From a virus (taxonomy: Duplodnaviria; Caudoviricetes), in IMG/VR virus record IMGVR_UViG_3300025098_005131: 64,000 nucleotides of DNA. One strand, given 5' to 3'. How positions within the stretch are numbered: position 1 is the stretch's first letter; the number at the start of each line of letters is the position of its first letter. A model generated the notes under the pieces. That model made no database searches and had not been told where the DNA came from. It worked only from the letters and a program-made list of their open reading frames with translations. Of this stretch, positions 19,556 to 35,746 are shown in pieces. A program made the position numbers and the translations under genes.

Positions 19556-19590
19556 TGTAAACCTTCTTATATTAACTTAATATAAATATT

Positions 19591-19970: not shown

Positions 19971-19995
19971 GTTTTTTTACCTCAGTTTAAAAAAA

Positions 19996-20328: not shown

Positions 20329-20382
20329 TTTAAATCCTTTTCCTGGTCTGTTTATTATATATATTTTAAAAAACAAAAACTG

Positions 20383-20628
20383 CTATTCTTTTAAATTTTC
20401 TAATCTTAGTTTCCACTTCACCTCTTCACAATCTCTCGCCCAAGCAATATCCGTAGGCACTTCGCGACATCCCCCCCATGTCTCAACGCCTGTTCCAGTA
20501 CAGGCACGCACTCTCACTTTTATTGAGTCGCACACCTTCTTTTCACCCAAACTATCAAAACCTTCGTTGTCATGATAATCACTGCAGCATAACGTAAAAA
20601 ACAAAAAACAATAAGCAATCCGACTCAT
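20383..20628 (-). CDS. Small Cys-patterned lipoprotein (paralog of 19313-19555)
   Basis: FFTLCC signal end; CDSIKVRVRACTG...C...C. Confidence 0.55.
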   Translation of the reverse strand: MSRIAYCFLFFTLCCSDYHDNEGFDSLGEKKVCDSIKVRVRACTGTGVETWGGCREVPTDIAWARDCEEVKWKLRLENLKE

Positions 20629-20766
20629 AATAAATGCCCTTTCAAATAAGTCAAATCTACCTATTAATCAGCCTCCAAAAATACTCCTAAATTTCAAATA
20701 ATTTATTGCATTTGAAAAAGTCCATCGCATTGTATAAAGCATAACTTTTTCAAGACTTTGCTCAAA

Positions 20767-21549
20767 TTATAAATCTATTTCAATTAAGTTTTCATCTAAG
20801 GTTTCTATATAATTAAGCACCTCAGGTTCTAACTTATAATAAGCATACGCTAAAGGGCTTTCAAAATTTTTCCAGTCACCATCAACAAAATTACCTTTTT
20901 CAGCTGAATTTAAAATAGCTGAATATTGGTATATGTCATCTGTCGGATCATCTTCTGTGTATTTTTTTGTTTGCTTGAATCTTTCCTGTTCCTCATCAGA
21001 CATATCTGAAAAAGGTGCATCATACATTACATCATCCCAAGACTCATCAGAAAAATCCATCTTAACAGCTTCAAGATTAAATTCAGACTTAGCTCTTCTA
21101 AGATAGCGATCCCAAACACGTTCAGCTTCCTCAGATACTTCACTTCTATCACTCATTAATGCACCATCCAAGTTACAGCTAACAATCTCTAATCCTATCT
21201 CATAAAGCAAAGGACCAAATCCTCCTCCTACATCTGAATATTTTATTACGTAAGGATCACGCTCGCCATTAACTTTTACATTTCTATCTACTGTTCCAAG
21301 ATGATTAAGCCATGCTTTTTGATAAAATACACCATTCATTCTTAAAACTGAATAGTTTAATAAATTAACTTCTAATACAGTGCCATTTAGTCTCGCCCTA
21401 ATCTTGATATCTTTTCCAGTCTCTTCACGTAAAGCAACTATTCTATCAACAAATGACTTAATCTTCGTTACACCACTTATATCAGATGCAATTTCGTTTA
21501 AATAACCCTTCCATCCTTCAACCAATAATTTATATTCTTTACGATTCAT
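20767..21549 (-). CDS. Leader-family protein with GNAT-like segment
   Basis: MNRKEYKLLVEGWKGYLNE; GGGFGPLLYEIGLE...SDRSEVSEEAERVW. Confidence 0.6.
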   Translation of the reverse strand: MNRKEYKLLVEGWKGYLNEIASDISGVTKIKSFVDRIVALREETGKDIKIRARLNGTVLEVNLLNYSVLRMNGVFYQKAWLNHLGTVDRNVKVNGERDPYVIKYSDVGGGFGPLLYEIGLEIVSCNLDGALMSDRSEVSEEAERVWDRYLRRAKSEFNLEAVKMDFSDESWDDVMYDAPFSDMSDEEQERFKQTKKYTEDDPTDDIYQYSAILNSAEKGNFVDGDWKNFESPLAYAYYKLEPEVLNYIETLDENLIEIDL

Positions 21550-21621
21550 ATTTCAATCCCAGTTTAATCTTATACATACACTTGATAATATATATATTTC
21601 TGCGTACAATATTAACTCAGA

Positions 21622-21656
21622 ATAAACGTCGTGACTCTAGAGCTACCTAGCTCGAT
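21622..21656. repeat. 35-bp intergenic repeat, copy 1
   Basis: ATAAACGTCGTGACTCTAGAG-N6-AGCTCGAT; fixed positions identical to 22949-22983. Confidence 0.85.
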
Positions 21657-22390
21657 TAATTGTTTTTATGCAAAGATCTGAAATGACCTATAGCGTTTTT
21701 GCTCACAGGTACGTCAATTACTTCATCAAACTCTTTTTCTAGTGGGCCTTGATAGTTTGAGGTCATTCTGTCATAAGCAGCATCAGGAATAGTTTTAGAT
21801 TTACCTTGTTCTTGATACTTTTTACTTCTATCTTTAGAAATTGATTTTAAATCATCTAAATAAGAAATACCGTCTTCTTCCCAATGAAAAACAACACCTA
21901 CTGTCTTGTAATTAGAAAGATCTAATTGATCTTTTATTCTACTTCTACTAGCTTGATTCATATTAGTCATGTCAATTACAACATCACGACCAGAAGATTT
22001 TGCGTTTTCTATGTTTCTTTCGTGATTTTCTAAAACTTCTAATTCAGCATTATTAATTTTTTCCCATGCTTTCGGTACCCAAGTTTTCCAACTTATTTGT
22101 TGATCAATAATTGGACCAAACTCGGGATGAACTACATCTTTTTCTATTTCTTCTTTTGTAGGTGACAAAAACATATCATCATAAGTCAATCCATACTTTT
22201 TTGAAACAGCTTCATTTTCGACATCTAGACTTATTATATAAGGATTATCTAAATTGTTCTCAACCCAAAAACTCTTACCTATTGCTGGCGGTCCGATCAA
22301 AAAAAACAAACTATTATTTTGACTTGATCCTTCTTTTAAAAATAATCGCCAACTTTCAACTAATAAATTATATTCTTTTTTATTCATCAT
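21656..22390 (-). CDS. P-loop kinase (AAA_33 / polynucleotide-kinase-like) with leader
   Basis: MMNKKEYNLLVESWRLFLKE; LIGPPAIGKS; VVIDMTN; KTIPDAAYDRM. Confidence 0.75.
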   Translation of the reverse strand: MMNKKEYNLLVESWRLFLKEGSSQNNSLFFLIGPPAIGKSFWVENNLDNPYIISLDVENEAVSKKYGLTYDDMFLSPTKEEIEKDVVHPEFGPIIDQQISWKTWVPKAWEKINNAELEVLENHERNIENAKSSGRDVVIDMTNMNQASRSRIKDQLDLSNYKTVGVVFHWEEDGISYLDDLKSISKDRSKKYQEQGKSKTIPDAAYDRMTSNYQGPLEKEFDEVIDVPVSKNAIGHFRSLHKNN

Positions 22391-22446
22391 CTAATATTTC
22401 TTTCATTAATGTTACTATTTATCATGCAAATATTAAATATATTTTA

Positions 22447-22875
22447 TTATTTAAGACAACAAGCCCAAGTCTCCATATACAACACAACATCTTCTCGACG
22501 ACGATGATCTAAATTTCGGCGCCTTTCGATAGGAATTCGCTTCAACACTTTAGGATCACTCAATCGCTCAAGATCTCTTAACTCTTGCAAAGTTGCACCC
22601 AAATCCAACAAAGCGCTAATCACAAAATCCAAAGGATAACCACTCGTCGGACAATACTCTCTTGTCTGCTCAGCCCAATCGCCCGCCCTCTGCAGAGCAA
22701 TCTTGTGCAACACTTCAGGCGAATTAAATGTCACAGTCTGTGCTAAATGCCCACAATTACATGCTCCCATATGCGTCCACTTATAACGACTCCCAGAAGC
22801 AATACGCTTTGCTGTTACTCTCAACGCTTCACCTAAAGTTCTAGGCACTTGAGGCACATATCTAATCTGTGTCAT
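22447..22875 (-). CDS. Conserved-looking bacterial-type hypothetical protein
   Basis: YKWTHMGACNCGHLAQT...YCPTSGYPLD...LERLSDP. Confidence 0.65.
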   Translation of the reverse strand: MTQIRYVPQVPRTLGEALRVTAKRIASGSRYKWTHMGACNCGHLAQTVTFNSPEVLHKIALQRAGDWAEQTREYCPTSGYPLDFVISALLDLGATLQELRDLERLSDPKVLKRIPIERRRNLDHRRREDVVLYMETWACCLK

Positions 22876-22948
22876 ATATAAATCCTTGTCTATTCTTTCT
22901 ACATTATCATATATGTTTAAACAAATCAGTTAAAAAGATTTAACACAT

Positions 22949-22983
22949 ATAAACGTCGTGACTCTAGAGATTCCCAGCTCGAT
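22949..22983. repeat. 35-bp intergenic repeat, copy 2
   Basis: ATAAACGTCGTGACTCTAGAG-N6-AGCTCGAT. Confidence 0.85.
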
Positions 22984-23435
22984 CAAATCTTGTCACCCCA
23001 AATATTTTTTAAACCTTTACCAACAAGACGCGCTTCAAGATCTTTTCTTTCTCTGTTTTTAATATCACGATGCAAGCCTCTAGACGACTGCGTACGCAAT
23101 CCTAAGTCTTCTAAGTAAGCAACAACAGCCTTTACACAAACACCAATCGGCATATAAGACACAGAATCAGTATGCTCTTCCCATAACTCTTCCAAAAGAT
23201 TTCGACCCGACTCAGTCATCGTAAAGTCAACTTCCTCATTATTTATCTTCATTCTAAATCTACTTCTAGAATATTCAAAACTATAAAATTGATCATCATT
23301 TACAAAAAATACAGCGCTAACACCTTCAGCAATTTTCTTGAAAAACAATTCTTTGTCTACGGTTCGACTTGAATCAGAAACTTCACTTATCACTTGTCGA
23401 ATCAACCTTCTCAATCTATGTTCAGATATACGCAT
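22983..23435 (-). CDS. Leader-family hypothetical protein
   Basis: MRISEHRLRRLIRQVISE N-terminus. Confidence 0.65.
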   Translation of the reverse strand: MRISEHRLRRLIRQVISEVSDSSRTVDKELFFKKIAEGVSAVFFVNDDQFYSFEYSRSRFRMKINNEEVDFTMTESGRNLLEELWEEHTDSVSYMPIGVCVKAVVAYLEDLGLRTQSSRGLHRDIKNRERKDLEARLVGKGLKNIWGDKI

Positions 23436-23492
23436 ACGTTTAATCTCCCTCTACAACAAACATTATATAACTCTACTTATCAGTTTATAAAC

Positions 23493-23527
23493 AAAAAGTT
23501 TTCCAAAATTTCTCTCGAAGTTTTTTG
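23493..23527. repeat. A/T-tract repeat around TTTCTCTCGAAG, copy 1
   Basis: AAAAAGTTTTCCAAAATTTCTCTCGAAGTTTTTTG; compare 24111-24146. Confidence 0.75.
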
Positions 23528-23573
23528 CTAAAAAACTGAAATTACTATTCCAAGTAAGTGCCGTAAAAATTTT

Positions 23574-24077
23574 CTACGTCTGTGACTCACGAGACGCCCT
23601 GCTCCACACAGTCGCTTCCCAAACATCACTATCATCAACATACTTTTTCCTAGTATCTTTAAATCCAGCATTACTAAACGCTCTCTGCGAAGAAATATTG
23701 TCCACACCAATAAGCAAATCAGAAGCTTCTCTACCCTCAAAAAACTTCGATATCGCTATACTTCCAATTCCCTTAACTCTCTCTCTTACTTCATTATCAA
23801 TATATATTGCTCCAACTCTCCAACCACCTTTCTCTTCTCTCGGCGTCATAAACCCAACCAATTCACCTCGCCAATATATACCACCTCTCAAACGACTACC
23901 ACCATCAGGATAAACAAAACCACTTATCTCACTATCAGCGTCTCCCTTCAATAACAAATCTCTATTAATACTATCAGGAAATATAACTTCAACTTCACTC
24001 TCAATAGCTACTTCTCGCGACTCATTTAAAAAAACTTTCCACTCGCTTAATAACAAAGACATGTCTTTTCTAATCAT
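23574..24077 (-). CDS. GNAT acetyltransferase with leader
   Basis: MSLLLSEWKVFLNE; VGAIYID...KGIGSIAI...NISSQRAFSNAGF. Confidence 0.75.
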   Translation of the reverse strand: MIRKDMSLLLSEWKVFLNESREVAIESEVEVIFPDSINRDLLLKGDADSEISGFVYPDGGSRLRGGIYWRGELVGFMTPREEKGGWRVGAIYIDNEVRERVKGIGSIAISKFFEGREASDLLIGVDNISSQRAFSNAGFKDTRKKYVDDSDVWEATVWSRASRESQT

Positions 24078-24110
24078 ACTGAAAACCTTTAACTTTATAT
24101 TCGAATTATT

Positions 24111-24146
24111 AAAAAGTTTTTTGAAATTTCTCTCGAAGTTTTTTTG
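24111..24146. repeat. A/T-tract repeat around TTTCTCTCGAAG, copy 2
   Basis: AAAAAGTTTTTTGAAATTTCTCTCGAAGTTTTTTTG. Confidence 0.75.
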
Positions 24147-24220
24147 TGGAAAACGATGTATTCAGATGTGATCCCTAAAAGCTTTTTGAAAAAGTCCCGC
24201 GAAGAAAATTCGGGTAGACG

Positions 24221-24320
24221 ACCAGGCCCAGCCCCCGTGTAAGTCCCACAGAGTTAGTGCAGATAGGCCTCGCATGGCCCCCTAGAAAGGCCCCTTAGGG
24301 CCCCGGGGCTTTTGGGCCTT
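24221..24320. other. GC-rich palindromic junction with six GGCC motifs at the transcription divergence point
   Basis: GGCC at 24225, 24266, 24276, 24289, 24299 and 24315; perfect palindrome GCCCCGGGGC at 24300-24309. Confidence 0.7.
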
Positions 24321-24353
24321 CGTCGTGTAACTCTAGAAGAGTAAGGATATAAT

Positions 24354-24527
24354 AAACCATAAGGAGGGATAGGAACGGCGGTTCCTAAGGACGAAGAGGA
24401 CGGGATGGCAACCGGCTTCGGGATTCCAACTCCAGATATTTGAAAACTAGGTAACTCCAGCTGATGAAGCGGTCAAGATACACGAGGACTGCGATGTGAG
24501 ATGACTCAGCTGAAAAGGACGTAAAAC
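24354..24527 (+). ncRNA. Candidate structured small RNA under the first promoter
   Basis: No convincing ORF. Stems GGAAC/GTTCC and CAGCTGA (24458)/TCAGCTG (24506), enclosing GTCA/TGAC and CAC/GTG. Confidence 0.35.
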
Positions 24528-24601
24528 GTGTAAAACTAGATTCCTTAGTCTATAATACAGATGTAAGGACAAACGATCAATCATTTAATCAAGGAGGTCT
24601 C

Positions 24602-24670
24602 ATGGAGGCTTATATGATTCCCGACGTAATAACCTTTCTTTCTCTTGCGGCATTTGTCTGGTGGTTGTAA
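24602..24670 (+). CDS. 22-aa membrane micro-peptide
   Basis: MEAYMIPDVITFLSLAAFVWWL*; own promoter (24528) and AAGGAGG SD. Confidence 0.7.
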   Translation: MEAYMIPDVITFLSLAAFVWWL

Positions 24671-24741
24671 CCACTCACCTCGTCAACTCGAAACGTGTAA
24701 CTCATCTAAAGTAAAGATATAATAAACCATAAGGAGGACAA

Positions 24742-24819
24742 ATGATCTACAGCTTAATCCCACTCATTCTTGGCTCAGCATTCTTGGCGATTCCCTTCGC
24801 GATCTGGTATTACAATTAA
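24742..24819 (+). CDS. 25-aa membrane micro-peptide
   Basis: MIYSLIPLILGSAFLAIPFAIWYYN*; own promoter (24695) and AAGGAGG SD. Confidence 0.7.
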   Translation: MIYSLIPLILGSAFLAIPFAIWYYN

Positions 24820-24878
24820 TAAGGAACCAAACTCAGCTCAACCCGTGTAACTAATAAAACAAAGGATTATAATAAACC

Positions 24879-25565
24879 ATGGAAAACATTCAATCAAACA
24901 TTCAAGGAGACAACATGGAAACAACAACAATACAACAACTATTTCAGGAGTTCATTAACGATGGTGGTGAACCTAAAGTGACTTCATTCAAGAGACATCT
25001 TGATAAGTTGATTAATCAAGAGATTAAAGGTCTTTGTGGTCGCTCGGCGAAGGCTGGTCTCGTCGACGATTGGCGTAGCGAGGTGAAGGCCCGTTTCTCA
25101 GGTCGTGGGGCGAAGTGGGTTAAGGTATCTGTTAATGATATCCTTCCGACTCTCGAAGGATTTGATGATACAACTGAATATATGGGATGGGTTCAGACAG
25201 CGGGATTTGCGTGGATTCGTTTCGCTGGACCTCGCGTCGCGAATGGAAGTCATTGTGCGGCCTTTGAGGTTCGAACTGGTGGATCGACGATTGATCATCC
25301 TAAACAGCTTCACTACATTCCCGCTCAGTTGCTTGACGACAAGATCGAGCCTCTCAATTCGACTCCCCACGCGATGAAGCTTGAAGAGGTCGCGACGACT
25401 CCCGTAGTGGAGGAGCCTGAAGTAGAGGAAGAGGTTATCGAGCTTAGCGGTTACGAGTTAAACCCGGACGACGACGGCGGTTCAGCTTGGGCTGAAGATG
25501 ATGACGAGGACATGATGGGTGACATTGAGGACCTCATGGACGACGAGGACAACTTAGACTTCTAA
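24879..25565 (+). CDS. Unknown 'GRGAKW' family, paralog A, acidic tail
   Basis: RFSGRGAKWVKV, GFAWIRF and FEVRTGGSTIDHPKQLH. Likely start 24915 (AAGGAG SD). Confidence 0.85.
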   Translation: MENIQSNIQGDNMETTTIQQLFQEFINDGGEPKVTSFKRHLDKLINQEIKGLCGRSAKAGLVDDWRSEVKARFSGRGAKWVKVSVNDILPTLEGFDDTTEYMGWVQTAGFAWIRFAGPRVANGSHCAAFEVRTGGSTIDHPKQLHYIPAQLLDDKIEPLNSTPHAMKLEEVATTPVVEEPEVEEEVIELSGYELNPDDDGGSAWAEDDDEDMMGDIEDLMDDEDNLDF

Positions 25566-25695
25566 GGTGTTTTGGGTGGTGGTGGCTTCGTGGCGTCGTC
25601 TCGCTTCGTGTAAATAATAATACCTTAGGTTATAATATGACCATAAGGACAAACAAACTAAACAAACAACAACAACAACGTGAAAGGACTTCTAT

Positions 25696-26037
25696 TTGAG
25701 AAGTAACAGCACATTCCTTACCCTCATCGCTTCCTTTTGTCTCTCAGCAGTTGCTTACAACGTCGCTCAGCCGGTTGAGGTTCCTGTTCAACATCTTGAG
25801 TTTGATGACTATGTGATTCAACCTCGCGTCGAGACATATGTGTTTGATGACTATGTGATTCAATCTTCAGCTGAAGTTATTGACATGGACGAGGTGATCA
25901 TCATTTCGCAGGAGGACGAATCAGATGACGGTGACGGTGCAAACATTGACATGATGAATGCTAACTGGTGTCTCATCCACCCTGACGACGTGATCTGTCA
26001 AGATGCAGACGAGGAGGACGAAGTAGAAGGTTGCTAA
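25696..26037 (+). CDS. Acidic secreted/membrane-anchored protein
   Basis: Signal-like N-terminus; internal repeat FDDYVIQ x2; own promoter. Confidence 0.65.
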   Translation: MRSNSTFLTLIASFCLSAVAYNVAQPVEVPVQHLEFDDYVIQPRVETYVFDDYVIQSSAEVIDMDEVIIISQEDESDDGDGANIDMMNANWCLIHPDDVICQDADEEDEVEGC

Positions 26038-26149
26038 GACTCAGGGTGTCTACCCCTCGATGCGTCGTCTCTTAACGTGTAACTCTTTAAGAGATTAAGT
26101 ATAATATAACATAAGGTTTAACAAACAACAACGTGACGAAAGGTTCAAT

Positions 26150-26395
26150 ATGATCTTCATAACAGTTAATCAACGAGGTTACTCTGACTCTGAACTTTAT
26201 GGTCCATTCACTTCAGTTGACGAAGGGAAACGAAAGGTGACTGATGGTGTTGATCGAGGACATGATGGTGATGAGACCAAGTATACATTCTTCGAGATGA
26301 CAACTGACGGGATGAAGGAGATTGGTTACGTTCATCTTGACGATGAGTGTGAAGGTGACGAGGATAATCTAAGAAGTGAAGTGTTTTACAACTAG
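26150..26395 (+). CDS. Acidic hypothetical protein
   Basis: ORF track; promoter 26077 and AAAGG SD. Confidence 0.7.
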   Translation: MIFITVNQRGYSDSELYGPFTSVDEGKRKVTDGVDRGHDGDETKYTFFEMTTDGMKEIGYVHLDDECEGDEDNLRSEVFYN

Positions 26396-26460
26396 GATGT
26401 AACGACGTTAACGTGTAAGACGACGAAAGACAATGTATAATAAAACATAAGGAGGAACAA

Positions 26461-26652
26461 ATGACAGTTCAACAGCTAATCGAAAAGCTACAATCTTTAG
26501 ATCCTCACAACGAGGTGGTTATTGAGGTGAATCATGATGACATCGTTCTTCTGAAAGAAGACAGGATTGTTGAGGACGTTATTACACAGGATTATCGTCT
26601 CGCGACGCAAGAAGACGTAGAAACACGAAAGGTTATAACACTAAGAGTATGA
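26461..26652 (+). CDS. Small hypothetical protein (MTVQQLIEKLQ type)
   Basis: Promoter 26413; AAGGAGG SD. Confidence 0.75.
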   Translation: MTVQQLIEKLQSLDPHNEVVIEVNHDDIVLLKEDRIVEDVITQDYRLATQEDVETRKVITLRV

Positions 26653-26747
26653 TTACTTTTACTGAATCTGCGGCAAATGGTGGGCTTCTCTTCGCAAGTT
26701 TCTTTATGGCGACACTTCTATACGCCTACATTACAGATGCACTTTAA
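26649..26747 (+). CDS. 32-aa membrane micro-peptide
   Basis: MITFTESAANGGLLFASFFMATLLYAYITDAL*; ATGA overlap with the upstream gene. Confidence 0.55.
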   Translation: MITFTESAANGGLLFASFFMATLLYAYITDAL

Positions 26748-26756
26748 GGATAAACT

Positions 26757-26813
26757 ATGACTTTAATCTATATGCTACTACTACTTTTCATCATCACTCA
26801 ATTCAACAAATAA
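26757..26813 (+). CDS. 18-aa hydrophobic micro-peptide
   Basis: MTLIYMLLLLFIITQFNK*; AAGGA SD. Confidence 0.5.
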   Translation: MTLIYMLLLLFIITQFNK

Positions 26814-26824
26814 GGAGCAATCAC

Positions 26825-27058
26825 ATGGACATCGAAGTTATTCAAAATCACAGACGTCGCGCTGAACTCATCATTGACAATACACTACTTGCTAACGGCG
26901 TACAACCAACCGCATCGCTCATCGAGGAGTTTCTTTCTTTCTACGACTACAACGGATTAGCTGCAACAATCAACAATATCTACAGCTACTCAAAAACAGT
27001 TCTTCATTCACGTCACGAACAACCTTACTTCCAACTAAACTTAGTGACTCACCGTTAG
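26825..27058 (+). CDS. Hypothetical protein
   Basis: ORF track; AAGGAG SD. Confidence 0.7.
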   Translation: MDIEVIQNHRRRAELIIDNTLLANGVQPTASLIEEFLSFYDYNGLAATINNIYSYSKTVLHSRHEQPYFQLNLVTHR

Positions 27059-27163
27059 GACCCTTGGTGGCGTCGTCCCTCATCGTGTAACTTTCAAATA
27101 AGCTTAGTATAATATATCATAAGGCAACAAACAATCAATCAACCCAAACAAAGGATAATCAAT

Positions 27164-27373
27164 ATGATTAAAACTAAAAAAGTTAGAAGAAGAATAACAG
27201 ACAAACCAAGCACTTTAATCTGGAGTGAGGCAAACAAAAACGGCGGATATACTATCTTCCACGGCGTGAAGGGAACTGATACTAAAACTATCGTTGGCGG
27301 TGCAGCTTCTCGTGATTCTCTTGAATACAACATTCGTAAAGCTAAGCACAAGTACGGCTACAAACTAAGCTAA
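27164..27373 (+). CDS. Basic hypothetical protein
   Basis: Promoter 27085; AAAGGA SD. Confidence 0.7.
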   Translation: MIKTKKVRRRITDKPSTLIWSEANKNGGYTIFHGVKGTDTKTIVGGAASRDSLEYNIRKAKHKYGYKLS

Positions 27374-27482
27374 TGACTCGGGGTTACCACCCTGCATGGC
27401 GTCGTCTCTCCTCGTGTAAGATTTAAATAATCTTGGTATAATAAACCATAAGGCAACATCAACTAAATAAAGGATTTGATCT

Positions 27483-27635
27483 TGAAATACAATAAGATTC
27501 GAAAACAAATCAAAAATCTTTCAAACCGAGCAATGCATGAGGAGAACTTGACAAACTACAAAAAGGCTGATGAGCTTCGCAATCAGGCTTACTTCTTATC
27601 TCAGGTCTTGGAAAACAAATCAAGAGGGTTTTAAC
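27483..27635 (+). CDS. 50-aa hypothetical protein (TTG start, not in ORF track)
   Basis: MKYNKIRKQIKNLSNRAMHEENL...; follows promoter 27414 and AAAGGA. Confidence 0.5.
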
Positions 27636-27723
27636 TCCAAACGTGTAAGTCTCAAATAATCAAGTTATAATAAAACATAATCCAAACAAACAAACAATCA
27701 TTCAATCCAAAAGGATAACAAAT

Positions 27724-28386
27724 ATGGAAAACTCAAACAATCAATCAATCAACTCAAACGAGGTTCCTATGTCAGACATTCAATCAATCTTCCAAGCTTT
27801 CGTCGAGTCCGGTGGCGAACCAAAGGTTACAAGTTTCAAACGTCACCTTGATAAACTTATCAATCAAGAGATTAAGGCTCTTTGTGGTCGCTCATCCAAA
27901 ACAGGCGGCGATGATTGGAGAAGTGAACTCAAATCTAAGTTCGGAGGCCGAGGAGCGAAATGGGTCTTTGTCAGCCTTGAAAACATTAAACCTACTCTTG
28001 ATCGCCTCGCAACTGAAGGTATCGATATCGAAGATTATAATAAGTTTACTCAAGCTCACGGCCAAGCTTGGATTCGATTCAGCGGTCCTCGAATTGATAA
28101 TGGAGTTCAATCGGCAGCTTTCGAAGTTCGAACTGATGGGTCAACTATCGATCATCCAAAACAACTTCACTATGTCCCTGTAAGCGAGTTAGATGAGACC
28201 ATTACATTCATGAACACAACTCCGCACTCAATGAGAGTTGAAGAAGTTGCGAAGCCTCAAGAAGTAGAGGAAGAGGTCGAGGTTAAGCTCAGCGAAACTG
28301 AAGAGACTCCAGTAGTTGAAGAAGATTACGTTGATGTAATGGATGATATCGATGAGCTCATGGACTTCGAAGAGATGGACCTCTAA
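27724..28386 (+). CDS. Unknown 'GRGAKW' family, paralog B, acidic tail
   Basis: GGEPKVTSFKRHLDKLINQEIK shared with paralog A; KFGGRGAKWVFV; FEVRTDGSTIDHPKQLH. Confidence 0.85.
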   Translation: MENSNNQSINSNEVPMSDIQSIFQAFVESGGEPKVTSFKRHLDKLINQEIKALCGRSSKTGGDDWRSELKSKFGGRGAKWVFVSLENIKPTLDRLATEGIDIEDYNKFTQAHGQAWIRFSGPRIDNGVQSAAFEVRTDGSTIDHPKQLHYVPVSELDETITFMNTTPHSMRVEEVAKPQEVEEEVEVKLSETEETPVVEEDYVDVMDDIDELMDFEEMDL

Positions 28387-28513
28387 GGTTTAGGTCGATA
28401 TTGATTCGGCGTTGCCACCCTTGGTAGCGTCGTCCCGGGACGTGTAACTTTTACATACCTTAGATATAATATATCATAAGGCAAAACAATCAATCAATCA
28501 ACGAGGAGACAAT

Positions 28514-28807
28514 ATGTCTGTAACAAACAAAATAAAAGTGCAATGGGAGTTTGACATCGAGACCAATGAAGAGTTGCAGTCGCGACTAGGTCTTACTGAA
28601 GGTGATGTTGCTGAGATGCTTAGCGACGAGGATGATGCAGTAAAGCTTCACGATCTATGTTGTGATGAAATGGGTGTTCCTCGCTACGTGGACATGGATC
28701 TTTTCTTCGACAACCCGCACGCAGCAAGTGACGACCAGATTACAGACGCACTAAGCGACGAACACGGATGGCTAATCAATGAATGGCACTACGTGCAAAA
28801 ACGTTAA
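28514..28807 (+). CDS. Acidic hypothetical protein (similar to 61217-61429)
   Basis: KIKVQWEFD...DQITDALSDEHGWLI. Confidence 0.7.
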   Translation: MSVTNKIKVQWEFDIETNEELQSRLGLTEGDVAEMLSDEDDAVKLHDLCCDEMGVPRYVDMDLFFDNPHAASDDQITDALSDEHGWLINEWHYVQKR

Positions 28808-28877
28808 TCCACGTTGTATAATATATCATAATCCAAACAATAACATTCAATCAATCTTTTAATCAATCAGGAGCTTA

Positions 28878-29111
28878 ATGAGCGACTATCAATACCAAGA
28901 AATCTTCGAGACGTGGCGCAACAAAACATTGTCAGAAGGCTTTACCCTTAATCAATTCCGGAGTCGATATAACTTCTTTGTAGAACGTGACAATATATGC
29001 GAACTCACCAAAGCTGTAGGCGCAAAGATGGCTTACATGAGCCTCGTCAAACAGCATCAAGAAGAGCTTCGACTCGTGCAAAGTGAAATGGAGAACGTAA
29101 GATGGATATAG
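28878..29111 (+). CDS. Hypothetical protein
   Basis: ORF track; AGGAG SD. Confidence 0.65.
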   Translation: MSDYQYQEIFETWRNKTLSEGFTLNQFRSRYNFFVERDNICELTKAVGAKMAYMSLVKQHQEELRLVQSEMENVRWI

Positions 29112-29332
29112 TCAAATATACAAAAGAGTTTCTCTATCTCTTCTCAGGTATGACAGCTCTTTTTGCCTGTACGATCGGAATCATAGTTGTTTCTTTGGCA
29201 CCTTTCGGTTTATGCATTTATCTCGGCGACGTACTAGGGTATCACGGTGTGATCGCGATGGGAGCAACAGTTTCCGTATACGCTTTTTACTATATCATAG
29301 CACGTCGTTTCAATCTACTCGGGGAAGTATAA
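29102..29332 (+). CDS. Two-TM small membrane protein
   Basis: Two hydrophobic helices. Confidence 0.6.
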   Translation: MDIVKYTKEFLYLFSGMTALFACTIGIIVVSLAPFGLCIYLGDVLGYHGVIAMGATVSVYAFYYIIARRFNLLGEV

Positions 29333-29568
29333 TGAATGTTGATCATACACAAATCCTTACATGGCCAACTCCAACAGGCATCGCAGCGTCGAACAAAGTC
29401 ACTCAAACGGCGAGGATTAATAACTACCTTGCAACAACAAAAACCTTTCTGGCTGACGGAACGGAAGTTATACCAAATAGCGAAACACTCAAAATAATCC
29501 TTCAAGGCTGGGATGACTTTGGTGTTGAAGTTGTTATCTCTTCAGACTCTTACATTGTAAAGGACTAA
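29332..29568 (+). CDS. Hypothetical protein
   Basis: Likely start MNVDHTQ at 29332, within track ORF 29212-29568. Confidence 0.55.
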   Translation: MNVDHTQILTWPTPTGIAASNKVTQTARINNYLATTKTFLADGTEVIPNSETLKIILQGWDDFGVEVVISSDSYIVKD

Positions 29569-29572
29569 ATAT

Positions 29573-29752
29573 ATGATTGAAACTATTATGTCTGCAAACT
29601 TTTGGCTTAGTGCTCTTGTTCCTGTTTCTTTACTTGCATTGCCTATCATGCTTGTTGGCAAAGCAACTCCAGTTCGTTCTTTTATGGCTGCTGTTGTAAT
29701 CTATCTCATGATTATTCTTCTCTCATCATGCAATATACCTGGTCCATTCTGA
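29573..29752 (+). CDS. 59-aa two-TM membrane protein (not in ORF track)
   Basis: MIETIMSANFWLSALVPVSLLALPIMLVGK...LLSSCNIPGPF*; AAAGGA SD. Confidence 0.55.
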   Translation: MIETIMSANFWLSALVPVSLLALPIMLVGKATPVRSFMAAVVIYLMIILLSSCNIPGPF

Positions 29753-29959
29753 TTCGCTATGTCCACCCTACGGTGTCGTCCTAATCACTAGCAGTGACAT
29801 TTTGATCTACTTTTGCGTAGATCTGGTCGCTGCTTTTTTGTATTCAGAGTATGCTCAAGGGTATAACAGCTCATCCCGTCTAGCGTGTAATATTTACTTT
29901 TTTAGTGTATAATATATCATAAGGCAACACAAACAATCATTCAATTCAAAGGAATCCTC

Positions 29960-30250
29960 ATGGCTTCAATAAGAACAACTAAAATCGGCGATACTCTAAC
30001 AATCAAAAAGATAGCACAGATCTATGGCCATCACCCTAACGGAAGATTCCTCACCAATCACAGCTCACATCCTGATTGCGCATACCCAAAGGTTAATGAT
30101 ACCCAATACATCATACAACCTGGCACAAAACTCGCTGTTATTAATAAAGGCAAAGCTGAAACAAAGTTTAGAGAAAGCTATGTCACTGTAGTTCATAACC
30201 AACACGAATTCGATATCATGTCTTCAGACCTAAGAAGATTCTGCGATTAA
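29960..30250 (+). CDS. Hypothetical protein
   Basis: Promoter 29885; AAAGGA SD. Confidence 0.7.
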   Translation: MASIRTTKIGDTLTIKKIAQIYGHHPNGRFLTNHSSHPDCAYPKVNDTQYIIQPGTKLAVINKGKAETKFRESYVTVVHNQHEFDIMSSDLRRFCD

Positions 30251-30336
30251 CACTTATCGTGTAATATAGATCAATCCTGTTTTATAATATATCATAATCC
30301 AATACAAACAATCATTCATCCCAAAAGGAAACAAAC

Positions 30337-30690
30337 ATGAATAACGTTTTAAAAGAAAACACCTACTTCATTATCGATTATCGCAGCCTCCCTTCAGGCA
30401 TCGGATCTATCGTCTTTCCAGACGACAAGACAATACTCGTCACAGACGAAGAATGCGGACCAAAAAACATGGAAGAAGCAAAACAACATATCAAAAAAGA
30501 GTTTCTCCCATCAGATGTTTCTCACATTCCATTCAGCACATCTGAACACTACAAAGTCGGCCAATCAGCACTAAGCACTATCCTTGAACATCATAACGTC
30601 AAATACGTTTACGATTCTGAAATGGGATACGAATTCAACAACGGCGAAACTACATTCACTCTAAATCAATGGTTAAAGATGAGAGGTTAA
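30337..30690 (+). CDS. Hypothetical protein
   Basis: Promoter 30259; AAAGGA SD. Confidence 0.7.
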   Translation: MNNVLKENTYFIIDYRSLPSGIGSIVFPDDKTILVTDEECGPKNMEEAKQHIKKEFLPSDVSHIPFSTSEHYKVGQSALSTILEHHNVKYVYDSEMGYEFNNGETTFTLNQWLKMRG

Positions 30691-31097
30691 CATGACATTA
30701 GAACAACTAAACAAAGCTATCCACGACGAAAGACAGAGTCGCGGCCTTACTGGTCGCCTAGAAGACCTCATCAATAAACGCAACAAACTCTTAAAAGGTA
30801 AGTCATGATATACTTTACTACTTACTTCATAGGATTAGTCATCGGCTTCTTTGCAGGCTCCTTATTCACTAAAGCTGTCGAGCCTAAAGAAGAATACATT
30901 TCTCTCACTCCAAAAGGCCAAGACTATCTCGATAAACTAAATAACAGTGACTCAACCGAACAACCCTAACGTCTCGTCATCATCACTGCTGCAAACATTT
31001 TAATCAAACCATCAGCTAAAGTTACCTCCTCAATCGTGTAACCCTGTTTAATCTCTTTATATAATATATCATAACAACCTTCCAAAGGATTTACAAC

Positions 31098-31463
31098 ATG
31101 AATAATCAAATAAGTTTAACTCAATGGAATGAGCTCATCGAAACTGTTAAGAACTCACCTGTTACTAAAGTCCAAGCAGATGACACTCTATACATCAGCT
31201 CACGTAACTTCGGCAACTCTAAACGCTACTTCTGCTACGATAACTACGATCGATTCGATGTTCCAGGTCTAGACTTCATCATCTCAAACAACGATGAACT
31301 CGGAAAACTCACAGTCTACAGCGCTAGCGAACAAGCTAGAGCTCCTATCAGCTTCGAACAAGGTAAACAAATTGCCCGAAACCTCTTCAATGAATACGGT
31401 GACCAGATGGCAGAAGAGATCGTTTGTGAATGGGTTATGGAAGGCAACAACAGCACTTTCTAG
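31098..31463 (+). CDS. Hypothetical protein
   Basis: Promoter 31036; AAAGGA SD. Confidence 0.7.
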   Translation: MNNQISLTQWNELIETVKNSPVTKVQADDTLYISSRNFGNSKRYFCYDNYDRFDVPGLDFIISNNDELGKLTVYSASEQARAPISFEQGKQIARNLFNEYGDQMAEEIVCEWVMEGNNSTF

Positions 31464-31745
31464 TCAAGCTGCTCTGTCTCACGTAGCACAGCTTTGAATC
31501 AGCTTTCCCCGGGACAGAATTGAAAAAAATGTTAATGATAATGATTATCAATATCAGTACGCGTCTCGAGCTTAGTCGTGAGGGTAGTAGCCGTGAGGCA
31601 GAATAGAATCCTTACGTTAACGCTGTTTTGGTTTTTTGCGTCGCGATGATAGTTTGTTTGTATAAGTGTAGAAGTTTAACGTGTGTGTAAATTCGGCCAC
31701 TTGTTGATTAAGATAGGGTGGTATATGATAGAAGGAGAAGAGTGA

Positions 31746-32045
31746 GTGAAGAGAAGATATATTTTAGTGTTGGTATTGAGTTTATTGTGGAGTGGTTGTG
31801 GAGCGATGTTGGGTTCTTCGAATGGAGTGAAGAGGTATGAGATTGGGAGTGAGAAGAGTTATGAGGTGAGTTGTATGGAGGGGGGAGAAGAGGTTGTGTA
31901 TGAGTGGGTGAGAGTGAGGGAGGGGAGTTTAGCGTATGACGTTGAGAAGAGGGTGTGGGATTTTGTAGGGAAGAGGAAGAGAGATGGTAAGTTATTGAGG
32001 GTGATTAGTAGTAGTTGTAGGATGGAGATGGGGGATTTGATATGA
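31746..32045 (+). CDS. Lipoprotein (similar to 47026-47322)
   Basis: Lipobox WSGC; CMEGG...SSSC pattern. Confidence 0.65.
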   Translation: MKRRYILVLVLSLLWSGCGAMLGSSNGVKRYEIGSEKSYEVSCMEGGEEVVYEWVRVREGSLAYDVEKRVWDFVGKRKRDGKLLRVISSSCRMEMGDLI

Positions 32046-32242
32046 CGTATATGATTGGTGGAGTGTTAGGATTGGGGTTATTGATGTATGTATTAGTGAT
32101 GTTTTTGTTTTTGCGTGGGAAGAGTGGATTAGAGAGGGAGGTAGAGAGGAAGATGAAGTTGGGGATGGAGTTGCAGCGTAGTGGGAAGTTGAGGGAGTAT
32201 GGTGAGTTGATGAGGGAGATAGAGGAGTTGGAGGGGAAGTGA
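32042..32242 (+). CDS. Single-TM small protein
   Basis: N-terminal TM helix and amphipathic tail. Confidence 0.6.
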   Translation: MTYMIGGVLGLGLLMYVLVMFLFLRGKSGLEREVERKMKLGMELQRSGKLREYGELMREIEELEGK

Positions 32243-32341
32243 TTGTGTGTTTGTTATGAGATTTATCGAGTGTATATTGAGTATGCGAGAGAGTATAATA
32301 TAATATAGGGAATCAATCAATTATTTGAGAGGGGTTATGAT

Positions 32342-32749
32342 ATGGTTAGATCATTGGTAGAAGTAGAGTTTCATGAGATTAATCCGTTTGAAGAGATAGT
32401 GTATGTGCATGATCATTCTGAGCATAATATGTTGGGAGAGTTGCATACGAGGGAGAGGGGAGTGGAGGCAGTGACGTATGCGGGGAGCGTAGATCATGTA
32501 GAGAAGTTTGATTTGAGGGATGTGACGAAGACTTGGGATTCGCAGGTGAGGGTGGAGTGGGGATTTCATAAGGGAGAAGAGTTTGATGAGGTGTTGCATA
32601 TACCTGTTAATATAAGTCAGCAGCCTATATTGGGGAATTTAGTTTTGGTGAACTTATTGAAGGCGCATAATGTTGGGTATGTGACGTTAGGGAAGATTAA
32701 TGAGGATAAGTTTATGAAGTTAGAAGATTTCTGTGAGAATTATTTATAG
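32342..32749 (+). CDS. Hypothetical protein, paralog of the C-terminal part of 40115-40735
   Basis: DVTKTWDSQ...LHIPVNI...NVGYVTLG versus DITKVWDSQ...VHIPLNI...NVEFVSFG. Confidence 0.75.
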   Translation: MVRSLVEVEFHEINPFEEIVYVHDHSEHNMLGELHTRERGVEAVTYAGSVDHVEKFDLRDVTKTWDSQVRVEWGFHKGEEFDEVLHIPVNISQQPILGNLVLVNLLKAHNVGYVTLGKINEDKFMKLEDFCENYL

Positions 32750-32826
32750 GTGTAGGTTAGATTAACTTTGTATTATAATATACTATAAGGTACGTTCAAT
32801 CGATCATTCAATTAGAGGGATATATT

Positions 32827-33339
32827 ATGAAGAGGGTAAAAGATGTTTTTGGTGAGCTGCGAGCTTTAGCGGATGTAGCGCAGGAGATTTATGTGAGTAA
32901 TGATCCTTATGATAAGTTTACTTCGGAGTATTCAGCAGCGAACAAGTTAGCTAGAGATTTTCAAGCGGGTATAGCTCCGGAGCTTGTTGTGAGTCTTAAG
33001 AAGGCGCAGGAGTGGATTAGGGAGAAGCATTCTGTAGTTTATTGTGGGAGTAATTGGACTAATTGTTTTGGTATGGAAGAAGCGTTGTTTGAGTATGTGG
33101 GATTTAATCGGTATAGGATGGATAGGGAGCGTGGAGAAGAGGAGTTTAAGGTAGTAGATGTTTCTCCTAAGCAGATGATTGTAGATGGTTATAAGTATTA
33201 TAAGATTCTTGCGGATCGAGAAGCAGATGTTTTGGCTGCAGGTGGTGTTGATACAGAGAGAGTCTTTACTTTAGAAGATGCTATAGCAAGTATGTTATTA
33301 GATTTGAAAGAGTTTGATGATCAGTTAGAGTCTGTATAG
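32827..33339 (+). CDS. Hypothetical protein
   Basis: Promoter 32750; GAGGG SD. Confidence 0.7.
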   Translation: MKRVKDVFGELRALADVAQEIYVSNDPYDKFTSEYSAANKLARDFQAGIAPELVVSLKKAQEWIREKHSVVYCGSNWTNCFGMEEALFEYVGFNRYRMDRERGEEEFKVVDVSPKQMIVDGYKYYKILADREADVLAAGGVDTERVFTLEDAIASMLLDLKEFDDQLESV

Positions 33340-33413
33340 GTGTAAATGAGATTGATTGTATATTATAATATATTATAAGGTATGTTTGGATTATTATTTT
33401 AGGAGGAAGCAGC

Positions 33414-33779
33414 ATGGATTTATTTAATGAGGCAGCTGAAGCTTTTGATAGCAGCAGAGATTTTGTGAAGTATCATATTGAAGAAGAGAGTTCTATTGAG
33501 TGGATGGGAGTTGCTGCGTGTGTTTCTGGTTTGGAGCCTGTTTCTTTGATTGAGAGAGATGATGGATTGTTAGGGCTTGCCTTTAGATATAAGGAGACAA
33601 TAACAGAAGCTCATTTTTCTACTGATGTTCATGGTAATGAAAGAGTTAATCCTGGTCAGCTTAGGTATTATCCTTCAGATATATTATATGGTGTTTATGA
33701 TCAGCAAGGAAATGTTTTTACAACTAAGAAAAAAGACTTTGAATCTTTATGTTCTAGTTTGAATGCAAGAGGCGTTTAG
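33414..33779 (+). CDS. Hypothetical protein
   Basis: Promoter 33340; AGGAGG SD. Confidence 0.7.
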   Translation: MDLFNEAAEAFDSSRDFVKYHIEEESSIEWMGVAACVSGLEPVSLIERDDGLLGLAFRYKETITEAHFSTDVHGNERVNPGQLRYYPSDILYGVYDQQGNVFTTKKKDFESLCSSLNARGV

Positions 33780-33839
33780 TAGTATTGTATATGTGTAAAT
33801 AAGACTAGTGTGTAGGTATAATATACCATAGGGGGATAT

Positions 33840-34172
33840 ATGATAAAAAGAAAAAGAAGATCTGATAGAAATCATATAATCTACCGGCTGAAGAATGCTG
33901 AGACAGGTAATGAGTATATTGGTATTACTGTGCAAAAAGATCAAAAAGTTATTGGTAGTGTGAAGTTACGTTTTAAGCAGCATGTATCTCGTTGTAAAAC
34001 ATCTGGTAAGCAGTGGTTATTATATCAGGAAATGAGAGAGTATGGATATGAGAGCTTTAGTTATGAAGTGATAGAAGTTGTTCGTGGTAAGAAGAAAACT
34101 CATCAGAGAGAAATAGAATATATCAATGTTTATAATCCTCAGCTTAACACTAAGAAGAAATCAATTATATAG
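33840..34172 (+). CDS. GIY-YIG nuclease
   Basis: HIIYRLKN...EYIGITV...RFKQH...EIEYI...PQLN. Confidence 0.8.
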   Translation: MIKRKRRSDRNHIIYRLKNAETGNEYIGITVQKDQKVIGSVKLRFKQHVSRCKTSGKQWLLYQEMREYGYESFSYEVIEVVRGKKKTHQREIEYINVYNPQLNTKKKSII

Positions 34173-34184
34173 AAGGGTAGTATC

Positions 34185-34637
34185 ATGAGCAGCACGAACT
34201 TTAAGAAGGCATATACTGAGACGGGTTATCAGCGGACGACTTATATGTCGCATTCAGTCGAGGGTATCTGTAATTTTGATGTGCATGGAGATGATTATTC
34301 TGAGAGTATTGAGGTTTTTCATAAATCTTATGTTGCTTCACGCAAGCAGCTCTTTAAAGATATAGGTTTGGGCAAGTGGAGTGAAGACAGCGACATAGGT
34401 TATCAGAATTATCTACGTGTTTTAGAGAGCGGAGAGTATGAGTTAGGTTATTATGAGAACGAATTTTCTTACAGGGTGCCAGCACAGATTAAGTGTTGTG
34501 ATGTCTGGTTAAGCTTAGGTAAGTTTACTAATACTTGTAGCTTGTGTGATGCAGATTATAATGGAAGCGGGCAGCTCTTAGCCTCTCGTTCCCAATGGGG
34601 TGAGGAGACTGGTGAGCATTGGTCTGAGTGTACGTGA
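34185..34637 (+). CDS. Hypothetical protein with Cys-rich C-terminal domain
   Basis: CC...FTNTCSLCDADYNGSGQLLASRSQWGEETGE. Confidence 0.7.
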   Translation: MSSTNFKKAYTETGYQRTTYMSHSVEGICNFDVHGDDYSESIEVFHKSYVASRKQLFKDIGLGKWSEDSDIGYQNYLRVLESGEYELGYYENEFSYRVPAQIKCCDVWLSLGKFTNTCSLCDADYNGSGQLLASRSQWGEETGEHWSECT

Positions 34638-34736
34638 TCTAGAAAGACACTTAATAAGTGTAAATAAGATTAGTGGTATATTATAATATGTTATAAGGCA
34701 ACAACATTCAATCATTCAATTAAAAGGAAATCCAAT

Positions 34737-35363
34737 ATGGGTAAATATACTTCTAATGATAATAGGTCTATGCAGTGTAATCCTAATAACGAAAGATACT
34801 GGTCGTCAAGAGGGTATAATGATTATGATGATGAAGATTCATATTCCAATAATGATCATGACAAATGGGCTAAAGAAAGAGATTTTAAATACAAAGAAGC
34901 AATTGATGAAACGGCTTTTAGCTATTTAGACAAAAAAATTCTATTCAAAGATGCTACTCGGGCTGTATTTGGTTTTGATCCTATTGGTGGAACCGTTGAG
35001 TATTTAAGTGAAAACATTCTTGAAGAAAAGTTAATCTTTAAAAAAGACTTTAATATTAAAAGGTCTGATTTGAGAAGTTTTCTTTTAAACAATACTCCTT
35101 CAAAGAATATTGAAATAAAACAAAATTGGTTTATAAGGGACATAGTTGAAAAAGAAGGTGGTTATTTTCGAAGATACGAGTATTTATTATTAGAAATGTT
35201 TGTGAGTTTAAACTATGTTATATTCTTATTTAACGATTATCGGCAAGGATTGAAGTCTATACCAAGTTACGGCCCTCAGCGTTGGATGTTTAAAGACTTT
35301 AAGAGTGGAGAGCTCGATTTTAAGACAGACAACGTAGTAGAAGATTTGTCTGAGTGTTATTAA
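34737..35363 (+). CDS. Hypothetical protein
   Basis: N-terminal NDNRSMQCNPNNERYWSSRG motif; promoter 34658. Confidence 0.7.
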   Translation: MGKYTSNDNRSMQCNPNNERYWSSRGYNDYDDEDSYSNNDHDKWAKERDFKYKEAIDETAFSYLDKKILFKDATRAVFGFDPIGGTVEYLSENILEEKLIFKKDFNIKRSDLRSFLLNNTPSKNIEIKQNWFIRDIVEKEGGYFRRYEYLLLEMFVSLNYVIFLFNDYRQGLKSIPSYGPQRWMFKDFKSGELDFKTDNVVEDLSECY

Positions 35364-35379
35364 TTTAGAAAGTTTTACT

Positions 35380-35622
35380 ATGAAGTATATGTTATTGTTA
35401 TTAGTTATGTTTTCTATTGCATGCAGCGAAACTAACGCTGCTGAAGGCGATCAGAAATACGAATTAGTTTGTAAGCATCCTATAGGACATATTGTGAGAT
35501 ATCCCGTAAGCTTTGATACGTTCTGGAGTCCTGTCAATACAAGAGGCGGAATCTTTAGATTTAAGACGTTAAATGGACTGATTGTTAGAAGTAGTTTTTG
35601 CCATGGAGAAGCTAAGCATTAA
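35380..35622 (+). CDS. Lipoprotein (paralog of 44933-45211)
   Basis: Lipobox SIAC; VCKHP...FRFKTLNG...SSFC. Confidence 0.7.
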   Translation: MKYMLLLLVMFSIACSETNAAEGDQKYELVCKHPIGHIVRYPVSFDTFWSPVNTRGGIFRFKTLNGLIVRSSFCHGEAKH

Positions 35623-35746
35623 AAGACTTGTTTATAGCGATTTGTAATACTTCTGTAATGTTATTAATGTGTAAATAAGATTTATTTTGTATTATAATAT
35701 ACCATAAGGTACATTCAATCATTCAATCACACAAGGCTTTATTATT

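Follow-up and report, generated by a model that had tools for sequence, protein, structure and literature searches.

It has been reported that Rho-terminated fragments have C over G for more than 150 nt and are T-rich, that purine-rich sense strands escape termination, and that synonymous recoding alone creates Rho termination, a bias that shapes codon usage (Dierksheide, Taggart, Johnson, Li 2026, PMC13323073). The bias described there is bacterial, genome-wide and mild, and the paper makes no use of the word "phage". Here we analyzed a 64,000-nt stretch (the window) of an uncultured marine giant phage, IMG/VR record IMGVR_UViG_3300025098_005131 (Duplodnaviria; Caudoviricetes), in which the GC skew of the plus strand reverses at about 31.55 kb, inside a conserved non-coding element that we call junction 2 (31464-31745, plus strand). 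As in Rho avoidance, the sense strand on one side of this junction is enriched in purines and in G over C; the other side is C-over-G and pyrimidine-rich, as Rho targets are. Unlike the bacterial bias, the pattern in the phage is local, extreme (GC skew at third codon positions, or GC3 skew, of +1.0, with loss of amino acids) and graded over about 1.5 kb, and it is anchored to one conserved junction with the opposite zone upstream on the same strand. The locus appears to be a boundary of transcription that is encoded in synonymous sites, rather than a terminal repeat.

The second system that the locus resembles is found in T4-type phages, whose PeSL promoter/terminator cassettes make up hyperplastic regions of small variable early genes, according to the abstracts of two papers (PMC2839356, PMC4122927). 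Upstream of junction 2 lies an early-type cassette block (24325-31463, plus strand) in which, as in those regions, small variable open reading frames (ORFs) are bounded by repeated promoter motifs, and in which relatives differ by insertion, deletion and swapping of cassettes. In contrast to what those abstracts describe, where compositional gradients and recoding by position are not mentioned, both are found here; furthermore, the promoter is of a GTGTAA type and not the T4 early consensus. The comparison covers the promoter part of PeSLs.

A third comparison is with GRINS, duplicated regions of more than 500 bp and more than 80% identity within one cluster that have been tied to gene conversion (2021, PMC8256042). 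Here too, intense skews that are strongest at third positions recode homologous proteins, the sign flips abruptly on one strand, and, as in GRINS, G/T-rich parts gain Gly, Val, Cys and Trp and lose Pro, Thr, His and Gln. The zone in the phage is nevertheless single-copy, position-anchored and purine-rich rather than G+T-rich. No copy of 31.7-33.4 kb longer than 500 bp and above 80% identity was found (the only paralogue is 32% identical as protein), and without long duplicates the region is by definition not a GRINS. It would act more like an extreme, local and graded form of the Rho-avoidance purine bias, set within a PeSL-type hyperplastic region. No description of such a composition switch in a phage was found in the literature searched; what is new is the mirrored C-rich zone upstream, the invariant junction anchor in 17 relatives, the positional recoding of cassettes, and the purine and depth tests given below.

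Base composition around a conserved junction

The window is about 30% GC, and its genes lie on the minus strand from 16.7 to 24.08 kb and on the plus strand from 24.3 to about 50.8 kb. A sequence-only reading of this DNA had noticed the reversal at 31.55 kb and the lack of a coding-strand change there; GC-skew windows and skew by codon position confirmed the first, and plus-strand genes on either side the second. Skew is mixed within 24.2-29.5 kb (+0.3 to -0.3), falls to between -0.18 and -0.33 at 29.8-31.3 kb, and then rises to +0.74, +0.91 and +0.69 at 31.6-32.5 kb, with 12 C and 247 G in the 600 nt at 31700-32299. It fades with distance on this side, as had been claimed, being down to about +0.3 by 34 kb and, past 40 kb, to about +0.1, and the minimum of cumulative skew in the window lies at 31 kb. 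The same switch is seen at third codon positions: four plus-strand genes at 29960-31463, which form the C-rich, G-poor tail of the block (the pre zone; C at third positions, C3, 30-39%; G3 4-8%), have a GC3 skew of -0.65 to -0.82, and the four genes at 31746-33339 have one of +0.91 to +1.00. Dinucleotides of the form YC number 11.8 per 100 nt upstream and 2.7 downstream, compared to a baseline of 5.0. Both Rho-target and Rho-avoidance composition were present by a sense-strand excess-C score that is a simplified version of the metric of PMC13323073: the window maximum, 5.21, falls in the pre zone at 30-31 kb, and the score is 0.00 at 32-39 kb and 0.00-0.04 at 20-24 kb.

Junction 2 itself is strongly conserved as DNA (alignments A1 and A3) among relatives whose neighboring proteins are 70-83% identical. 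It consists of an imperfect inverted repeat (31467-31493), an A-run, a sigma70-like promoter (TTGAAA-17-GATTAT, 31520-31548, from a promoter scan) and about 140 nt of further conserved sequence. A terminator scan of junction 2 and the block end gave no canonical intrinsic terminator, and no consensus RNA fold was obtained at junction 2 (alifold energy 0 on both strands). Overlapping the spacer and -10 of the promoter is a perfect palindrome resembling a Fur box, TTGATAATGATTATCAA (31535-31551), the only zero-mismatch match in the window to the 7-1-7 Fur-box pattern TGATAATNATTATCA. It agrees at 17 of 19 positions with the Vibrio Fur consensus quoted in PMC7536154, and it is present in most of 17 aligned relatives, with another palindrome, ATGAATCGCTATTCAT, in its place in three (L014, L017 and L039). 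The palindrome suggests that the host iron regulator or a phage repressor controls the unit downstream of junction 2, and, because the operator-like palindrome sits inside the sigma70-like promoter, a separately regulated unit of this kind would need insulation.

Near the downstream end of the junction is a 20-mer, GGCCACTTGTTGNTTAAGAT (31695-31714, plus strand), which is unique in the window and which may possibly be a special promoter with TAAGAT as its -10. Relatives were gathered from IMG/VR and metagenomes by its presence (three chance matches, L034, L035 and L042, were left out), and none of the 17 true relatives differs from it at any position. The C-poor zone sets in about 60 nt ahead of the 20-mer and is fully established directly past it, with a C fraction of 0.011 in the next 40 nt. 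In the 300 nt that follow the 20-mer, skew lies between +0.68 and +0.89 in all 17 true relatives with downstream sequence. Averaged over relatives, skew is about -0.2 from -2.1 to -0.3 kb relative to the 20-mer and then +0.74, +0.65, +0.43, +0.40, +0.29 and +0.21, before a plateau at about +0.25. Approaching junction 2 in pooled relatives, four-fold C rises from 0.10 to 0.29 and four-fold G falls from 0.19 to 0.05, and composition is back at baseline by about 3 kb after it. These results bear out the proposal that the reversal has a boundary role: it marks a conserved functional boundary beside an early-type, promoter-dense block.

The zone after the junction is 34-46% G and 40-45% GC, and canonical G-quadruplex motifs were not found in its C-free part. 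Its first two genes (31746-32242, plus strand) encode one protein of 99 aa, which has a lipoprotein-like signal, and one of 66 aa that matches DUF6435 (E 1.7e-7, a hit above the cut-off), and both genes are nearly C-free at all three codon positions, with P, H, Q, T and A together making up 2-3% of residues. From local base composition we estimate the chance of a 99-codon open frame here at about 1e-4. C has been stripped next to the junction from first and second codon positions, from promoter bases and from spacers. The identity of the first gene varies among relatives (lipoprotein-like, membrane, pentapeptide-repeat and other proteins), and in all of them it is nearly C-free. A decay zone follows (32342-34637, plus strand) in which the skew is confined to third positions, first and second positions being normal: GC3 skew is +0.91 and +0.93 at 32342-33339, where third positions are C-free, and then +0.64, +0.68 and +0.32. 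A small GIY-YIG (Seg-like) gene of homing-endonuclease type lies inside it, at 33840-34172. In addition, the 600 nt at 31720-32320 hold 17 GGAG motifs and 20 runs of at least three G, compared to 0-3 GGAG per kb elsewhere. In T4 this motif is where the nuclease RegB cleaves, and messages from the C-free zone could be very short-lived if the phage has a RegB-like enzyme.

The same gene families fall on either side of junction 2 in different relatives, with GC3 skews of -0.4 to -0.7 upstream and +0.5 to +1.0 downstream. A family of 105-131 aa has a GC3 skew of -0.43 to -0.72 at -1.4 to -2.3 kb, +0.81 at +338 and +0.54/+0.58 at +801, and one of 78-138 aa goes from between -0.12 and -0.58 upstream to between +0.83 and +0.89 at +240 to +505. 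Members of a 100-aa family trace the decay, with +1.00 at 54-76 nt, +0.86 at 2347, +0.38 at 2451 and -0.18/-0.19 at 5484/9573. Nine families have members both within the first 1.2 kb and elsewhere, and in all nine GC3 skew is higher in the members within. A 220-aa paralogue family in the block behaves likewise on the other side, with G3 of 0.22-0.27 and C3 of 0.11-0.22 near the upstream end of the block and G3 of 0.06 and C3 of 0.30 near junction 2. The exceptions to the rule include displaced copies of the DUF6435 and lipoprotein genes, which retain +0.9. These results demonstrate that position, and not gene family, sets composition, and that shuffled cassettes are recoded at synonymous sites.

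Four-fold sites and a boundary that Rho may read

At two-fold sites the direction of change was clear. Where copies outside and inside the zone after the junction share the amino acid, the inside copy has A>G 81 times and G>A twice, and C>T 67 times and T>C never; the upstream zone mirrors this, with T>C 50 against C>T 14 and G>A 22 against A>G 8. Four-fold sites separate the explanations further. Their baseline composition is A 0.36, C 0.08, G 0.09 and T 0.48 (purine 0.44). In the first 600 nt after junction 2 it becomes A 0.24, C 0.01, G 0.48 and T 0.28, and in the last 600 nt before it A 0.31, C 0.29, G 0.05 and T 0.35 (purine 0.36). Four-fold purine is thus 0.72 (n=676) in the first 600-nt bin downstream, 0.59 in the second and 0.35-0.37 upstream (z = 12.9 and -5.5). 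Diverged ortholog pairs are saturated at these sites, so that they show the composition of a zone and not paths of mutation. An origin-type model with deamination only is insufficient, because transitions keep purine content and because C>T should raise T, yet T falls; selection or a transversion-generating process is at work. The same comparison sets the locus apart from the gradient of vertebrate mitochondrial DNA (PMC4182315, PMC9561281). In both, four-fold skew is very strong, is graded with distance from a fixed point and does not depend on the identity of the gene; the mitochondrial one, however, has a transition (C>T, A>G) signature, unchanged purine and genome-wide extent, whereas the effect here includes a purine shift of as much as 28 points and has faded within less than 3 kb.

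The reading that we consider best supported, with a probability of about 0.4, is that a position-dependent composition of nascent RNA is kept by selection on the axis that Rho reads, giving a Rho-prone tail followed by a Rho-proof head. Junction 2 (31.46-31.75 kb) would be a conserved boundary at which, within an early region of the T4-type hyperplastic kind, one transcription unit gives way to another. With C over G and more pyrimidines on its sense strand, the final 1.5-2.5 kb of the early block would offer a Rho-binding composition at a block end that has no intrinsic terminator; the first 0.6-1.5 kb of the next unit, from about 60 nt before the promoter-like 20-mer, would, being nearly C-free and rich in G and purines, give Rho no place to load. 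Read-through from the roughly 15 strong early promoters would be halted in this way before it enters a separately controlled unit (with its Fur-box-like operator and special promoter), and that unit's own transcripts would be shielded from premature termination. Cassettes shuffled into either zone would be rewritten at synonymous sites and, beside the junction, in amino acids as well. We infer Rho as the reader, and the places where transcription starts and stops, from this arrangement. More tentatively still, synonymous-site composition may be a position-specific code read by host Rho, acting as a hairpin-less terminator over the last 2 kb of the early block and then as a factor-free anti-termination zone, with cassettes rewritten up to the loss of five amino acids. 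In a variant, the C-free head may be a self-reinforcing R-loop zone that serves replication.

Several observations weigh against a role for Rho. The arms hold many internal GTGTAA promoters without any local re-peaking of the skew, and because of this a simple rule that every 5' end needs protection fails. Translation normally shields an ORF from Rho, so that further assumptions are required if genes that are translated are to form a Rho-prone tail. A process at the DNA level would account just as naturally for mirror symmetry about a single point, C depletion sets in about 60 nt upstream of the 20-mer and not exactly at a start site, and the substitutions at two-fold sites resemble the deamination pair, though only transitions are synonymous there. 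In addition, C-containing cassettes are tolerated in the zone. In L017 two cassettes that are normally upstream sit unskewed (-0.25 and 0.00) after the junction (12947-13557), and in L041 an unskewed cassette lies about 1.2-1.8 kb after the 20-mer, its genes being upstream of the junction in other relatives. Such cassettes have probably transposed recently and could help to date the recoding; tolerated inserts of this kind fit slow amelioration better than a strict functional requirement.

If selection for Rho-related composition is nevertheless correct, ordinary genes would hold strong regulatory information in their synonymous sites, set by nothing but the location of the gene, and the Rho-avoidance code would extend from bacterial genomes to the timing of phage genes. 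The occurrence of the same families on both sides of one boundary would furthermore offer a natural comparative test bed for the speed at which a gene is rewritten after it moves.

Alternative explanations

The alternative that survives best, although we regard it as unlikely, is that junction 2 is a site of replication initiation (an origin, an R-loop site or a strand-displacement start), such that the plus strand to the right and the minus strand to the left stay single-stranded for longer and gain C>T and A>G. The sequence-only reading had invoked skew flips as marks of origins, and much of the pattern suits this. The switch is mirror-symmetric about one conserved non-coding point, a sign change independent of gene orientation that is found in 17 relatives and at junction 2 only; the two-fold substitutions have the expected directions on both sides, A>G and C>T downstream and T>C and G>A upstream; the cumulative-skew minimum of the window is at 31 kb; A/T-rich sequence, a palindrome and promoters lie in the junction; and the unskewed inserts look like recent arrivals in a mutational regime. 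However, single-strand deamination should leave purine content unchanged, and four-fold purine shifts strongly in both directions, with T dropping where C>T should raise it. Nor does the extra skew fill a replichore: it has decayed to the coding-strand plateau (about +0.25) within 1.5-3 kb. Typical bacterial replication asymmetries are smaller than the GC3 skew of +1.0 seen here. No iterons and no initiator gene were identified, contig depth has no peak (a weak test), and the skew flip at the other end of the block needs no origin.

A more specific model for such a site is T4 oriF/oriG, in which a promoter and an unwinding element form an R-loop with the non-template strand single-stranded, the A+T-rich element downstream measuring about 50 bp (Kreuzer and Brister 2010, PMC3016281). 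The likeness lies in a promoter followed by a zone where a stable RNA-DNA hybrid could displace the non-template strand, and here a G-rich transcript could reinforce R-loop formation. A promoter-like 20-mer is indeed present at junction 2, but the zone downstream of it is 0.6-1.5 kb long, protein-coding and G-rich (40-45% G) and not A+T-rich, and no MotA box was seen by eye. On present evidence the skew flips mark neither origins nor, as discussed below, genome ends, which corrects a tempting mis-annotation.

Slightly less probable again is that something other than Rho has selected for a message or a non-template strand that lacks C, such as RNases or toxins with C-containing sites, chain terminators that are cytidine analogues, or a modified cytosine that is kept off one strand. 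The loss of C from the first two genes at all codon positions, at the cost of five amino acids, is what such selection would produce, and it holds for the unrelated first genes of different relatives. Loss of C is all that it predicts, however; it does not account for the fivefold gain of four-fold G, the loss of T or the C-rich mirror zone upstream, and neither the graded decay nor the tolerance of C-containing cassettes in the zone follows from it.

It is improbable that the pattern reflects codon choice at the level of translation, with host-like, optimal C-ending codons in the block and rare G-ending codons that limit or time translation in the genes after it. The fraction of C in NNY codons of the pre zone reaches 0.57-0.69 and that of G in NNR codons is low (0.20-0.28), a common signature of high expression; GC content at third positions (GC3) is raised over the whole block, and the phage tRNAs (six in the window) all read A-ending codons. 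Against this, skew tracks position and not gene family, C is lost near the junction from first and second codon positions, promoter bases and spacers too, and four-fold C rises to 0.29, at sites where the optimal codons of A+T-rich genomes do not usually end in C.

T5 and SPO1 are known to carry early genes in long terminal repeats, and the sequence-only reading had proposed that 24.2-31.55 kb is such a direct repeat, collapsed in the assembly and with the flips at its borders. We consider this very improbable: the block does resemble an early takeover module (dense promoters, tiny ORFs) and has conserved non-coding DNA at both borders, but its depth is not doubled, contigs run straight through both borders, and its length varies from 4.8 to 8.7 kb among relatives. 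Depth was taken as the Logan k-mer depth of zero-mismatch contigs, that is, contig means of metagenomes and not raw-read depth. In run X1 the block has values of 56.3, 47.8 and 56.0, the left flank 57.9 and 55.7, and the right flank 40.8 and 44.0; in run X3 the block has 23-40, the left flank 35.6 and the right flank 30.5 and 24.6. Block depth is therefore close to that of the flanks, and equal to or below that of the left flank, in both runs, and the predicted doubling was not found.

A mis-join at 31.5 kb, which would have made the reversal an artefact, is contradicted by five contigs that cross 31.55 kb (L001, L002, L004, L005 and L006). Contigs L006-L013 cross 24.2 kb. Both sets match at 99.9-100% identity and stem from several different samples of JGI, ENA and Logan; each junction is crossed in at least five independent assemblies, and L006, taken from a contig of 187.7 kb, covers the entire block. 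Contig ends do recur inside the block in several independent assemblies, at 24452, 26868-26994 and 27151-27291. The contig pairs at the latter two overlap by exactly the assembler k-mer (127 and 141), and these exact-k overlaps identify the breaks as graph forks from strain variants and not as physical ends. Contig joints considered as genome ends were likewise rejected, since their sides are short (22-42 nt) and lie at promoter or leader repeats, which points to graph cross-links or strain variants. All three places where contigs recurrently end are hot spots of strain-level cassette variation within the block.

The early cassette block and the left arm

In the block, small ORFs each lie behind a CGTGTAA-N17-TATAAT promoter repeat, and some carry a GGCGTCGTC element. 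The claim that promoters are densest here was upheld: 15 copies of GTGTAA-N17-TATAAT fall in the 6.8 kb at 24.3-31.1 kb, and the plus-strand series runs on to about 48 kb. The repeats found are promoter-sized and include families D1-D3, D6 and D8. GC content is 0.40-0.48, compared to about 0.30 elsewhere in the window. Among relatives, gene content is shuffled. Most GTGTAA promoters from 24360 to 44000 are followed by G-free, CAA-rich leaders (CAACAAACAATCAATCA), and the reverse complement of such a leader is found in junction 2, at 31645-31663 (inverted repeats I3 and I4). Behind the block's first promoter (24325-24353) comes an ORF-free segment of about 170 nt (24354-24527) that is near-invariant in relatives (e.g. 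GGAACGGCGGTTCC and GGGATTCCAACTCCAGATATTTGAAAAC). This segment had no Rfam match and is a candidate small RNA that would be the first early transcript.

The block is bounded on its other side by junction 1 (24078-24324), a conserved non-coding divergence region from which the minus-strand genes of the left arm (16707-24077) are transcribed away from the block. Junction 1 carries GATGTATTCAGATGTG at 24155-24170 and GCCCCGGGGC at 24300-24309, and in relatives with proteins 70-83% identical its alignment A2 has a mean column identity of 77%. Eight distinct relatives carry the motif; 21/24 matches to the junction-1 16-mer were due to chance and were left out. Plus-strand skew in the window is -0.45 to -0.65 at 23.2-24.1 kb, reaching -0.65 at 23.8-24.1 kb, and the flip is somewhat stronger in the first left-arm gene of the window's own strain. 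In the eight relatives, aligned on the motif, the skew of the left arm is broad, at -0.3 to -0.4 over 5 kb (6-7 relatives), and its four-fold sites are near baseline (six relatives; C 0.04-0.06, G 0.13-0.18 in the first 2 kb, purine 0.43-0.51). The flip at 24.2 kb is ordinary divergent transcription with a strong coding-strand excess of G over C. Because it coincides with divergent transcription at near-baseline synonymous composition, the two junctions are not equivalent, and the suggestion that they are paired replication-initiation sites is not supported. Of the heptamer CCCCGGG, said to be shared by both, the positions stand, as it occurs in the window only at 24301/24302 and 31507; it is not conserved at junction 2 in relatives, and its presence at both is probably a coincidence.

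The left arm may be a late unit, since a sequence resembling T4 late promoters, ATAAATAG, lies directly upstream of the first left-arm gene in relatives (the window has TATAAAGT at 24078-24110, minus strand) and since GTGTAA promoters were not found on the minus strand from about 12 to 44 kb, a range in which the left arm lies entirely.

No deposited phage matched 23-34 kb by megablast, IMG/VR scans for close relatives with two flank proteins found nothing, and PHROGs and Pfam assigned almost no functions to about 25 proteins of the region; Rfam gave tRNAs only. Elsewhere the window encodes a tail fibre, a PhoH-like protein and a helicase, and the largest contig carrying one of its proteins is 277,787 bp. 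Finally, a five-member paralogue family of 184-255 aa without a known domain is spread over the window (24879-25565, 27724-28386, 43767-44534, 58190-58744 and 60051-60671), with 872 homologues in marine metagenomes, mostly on short contigs.

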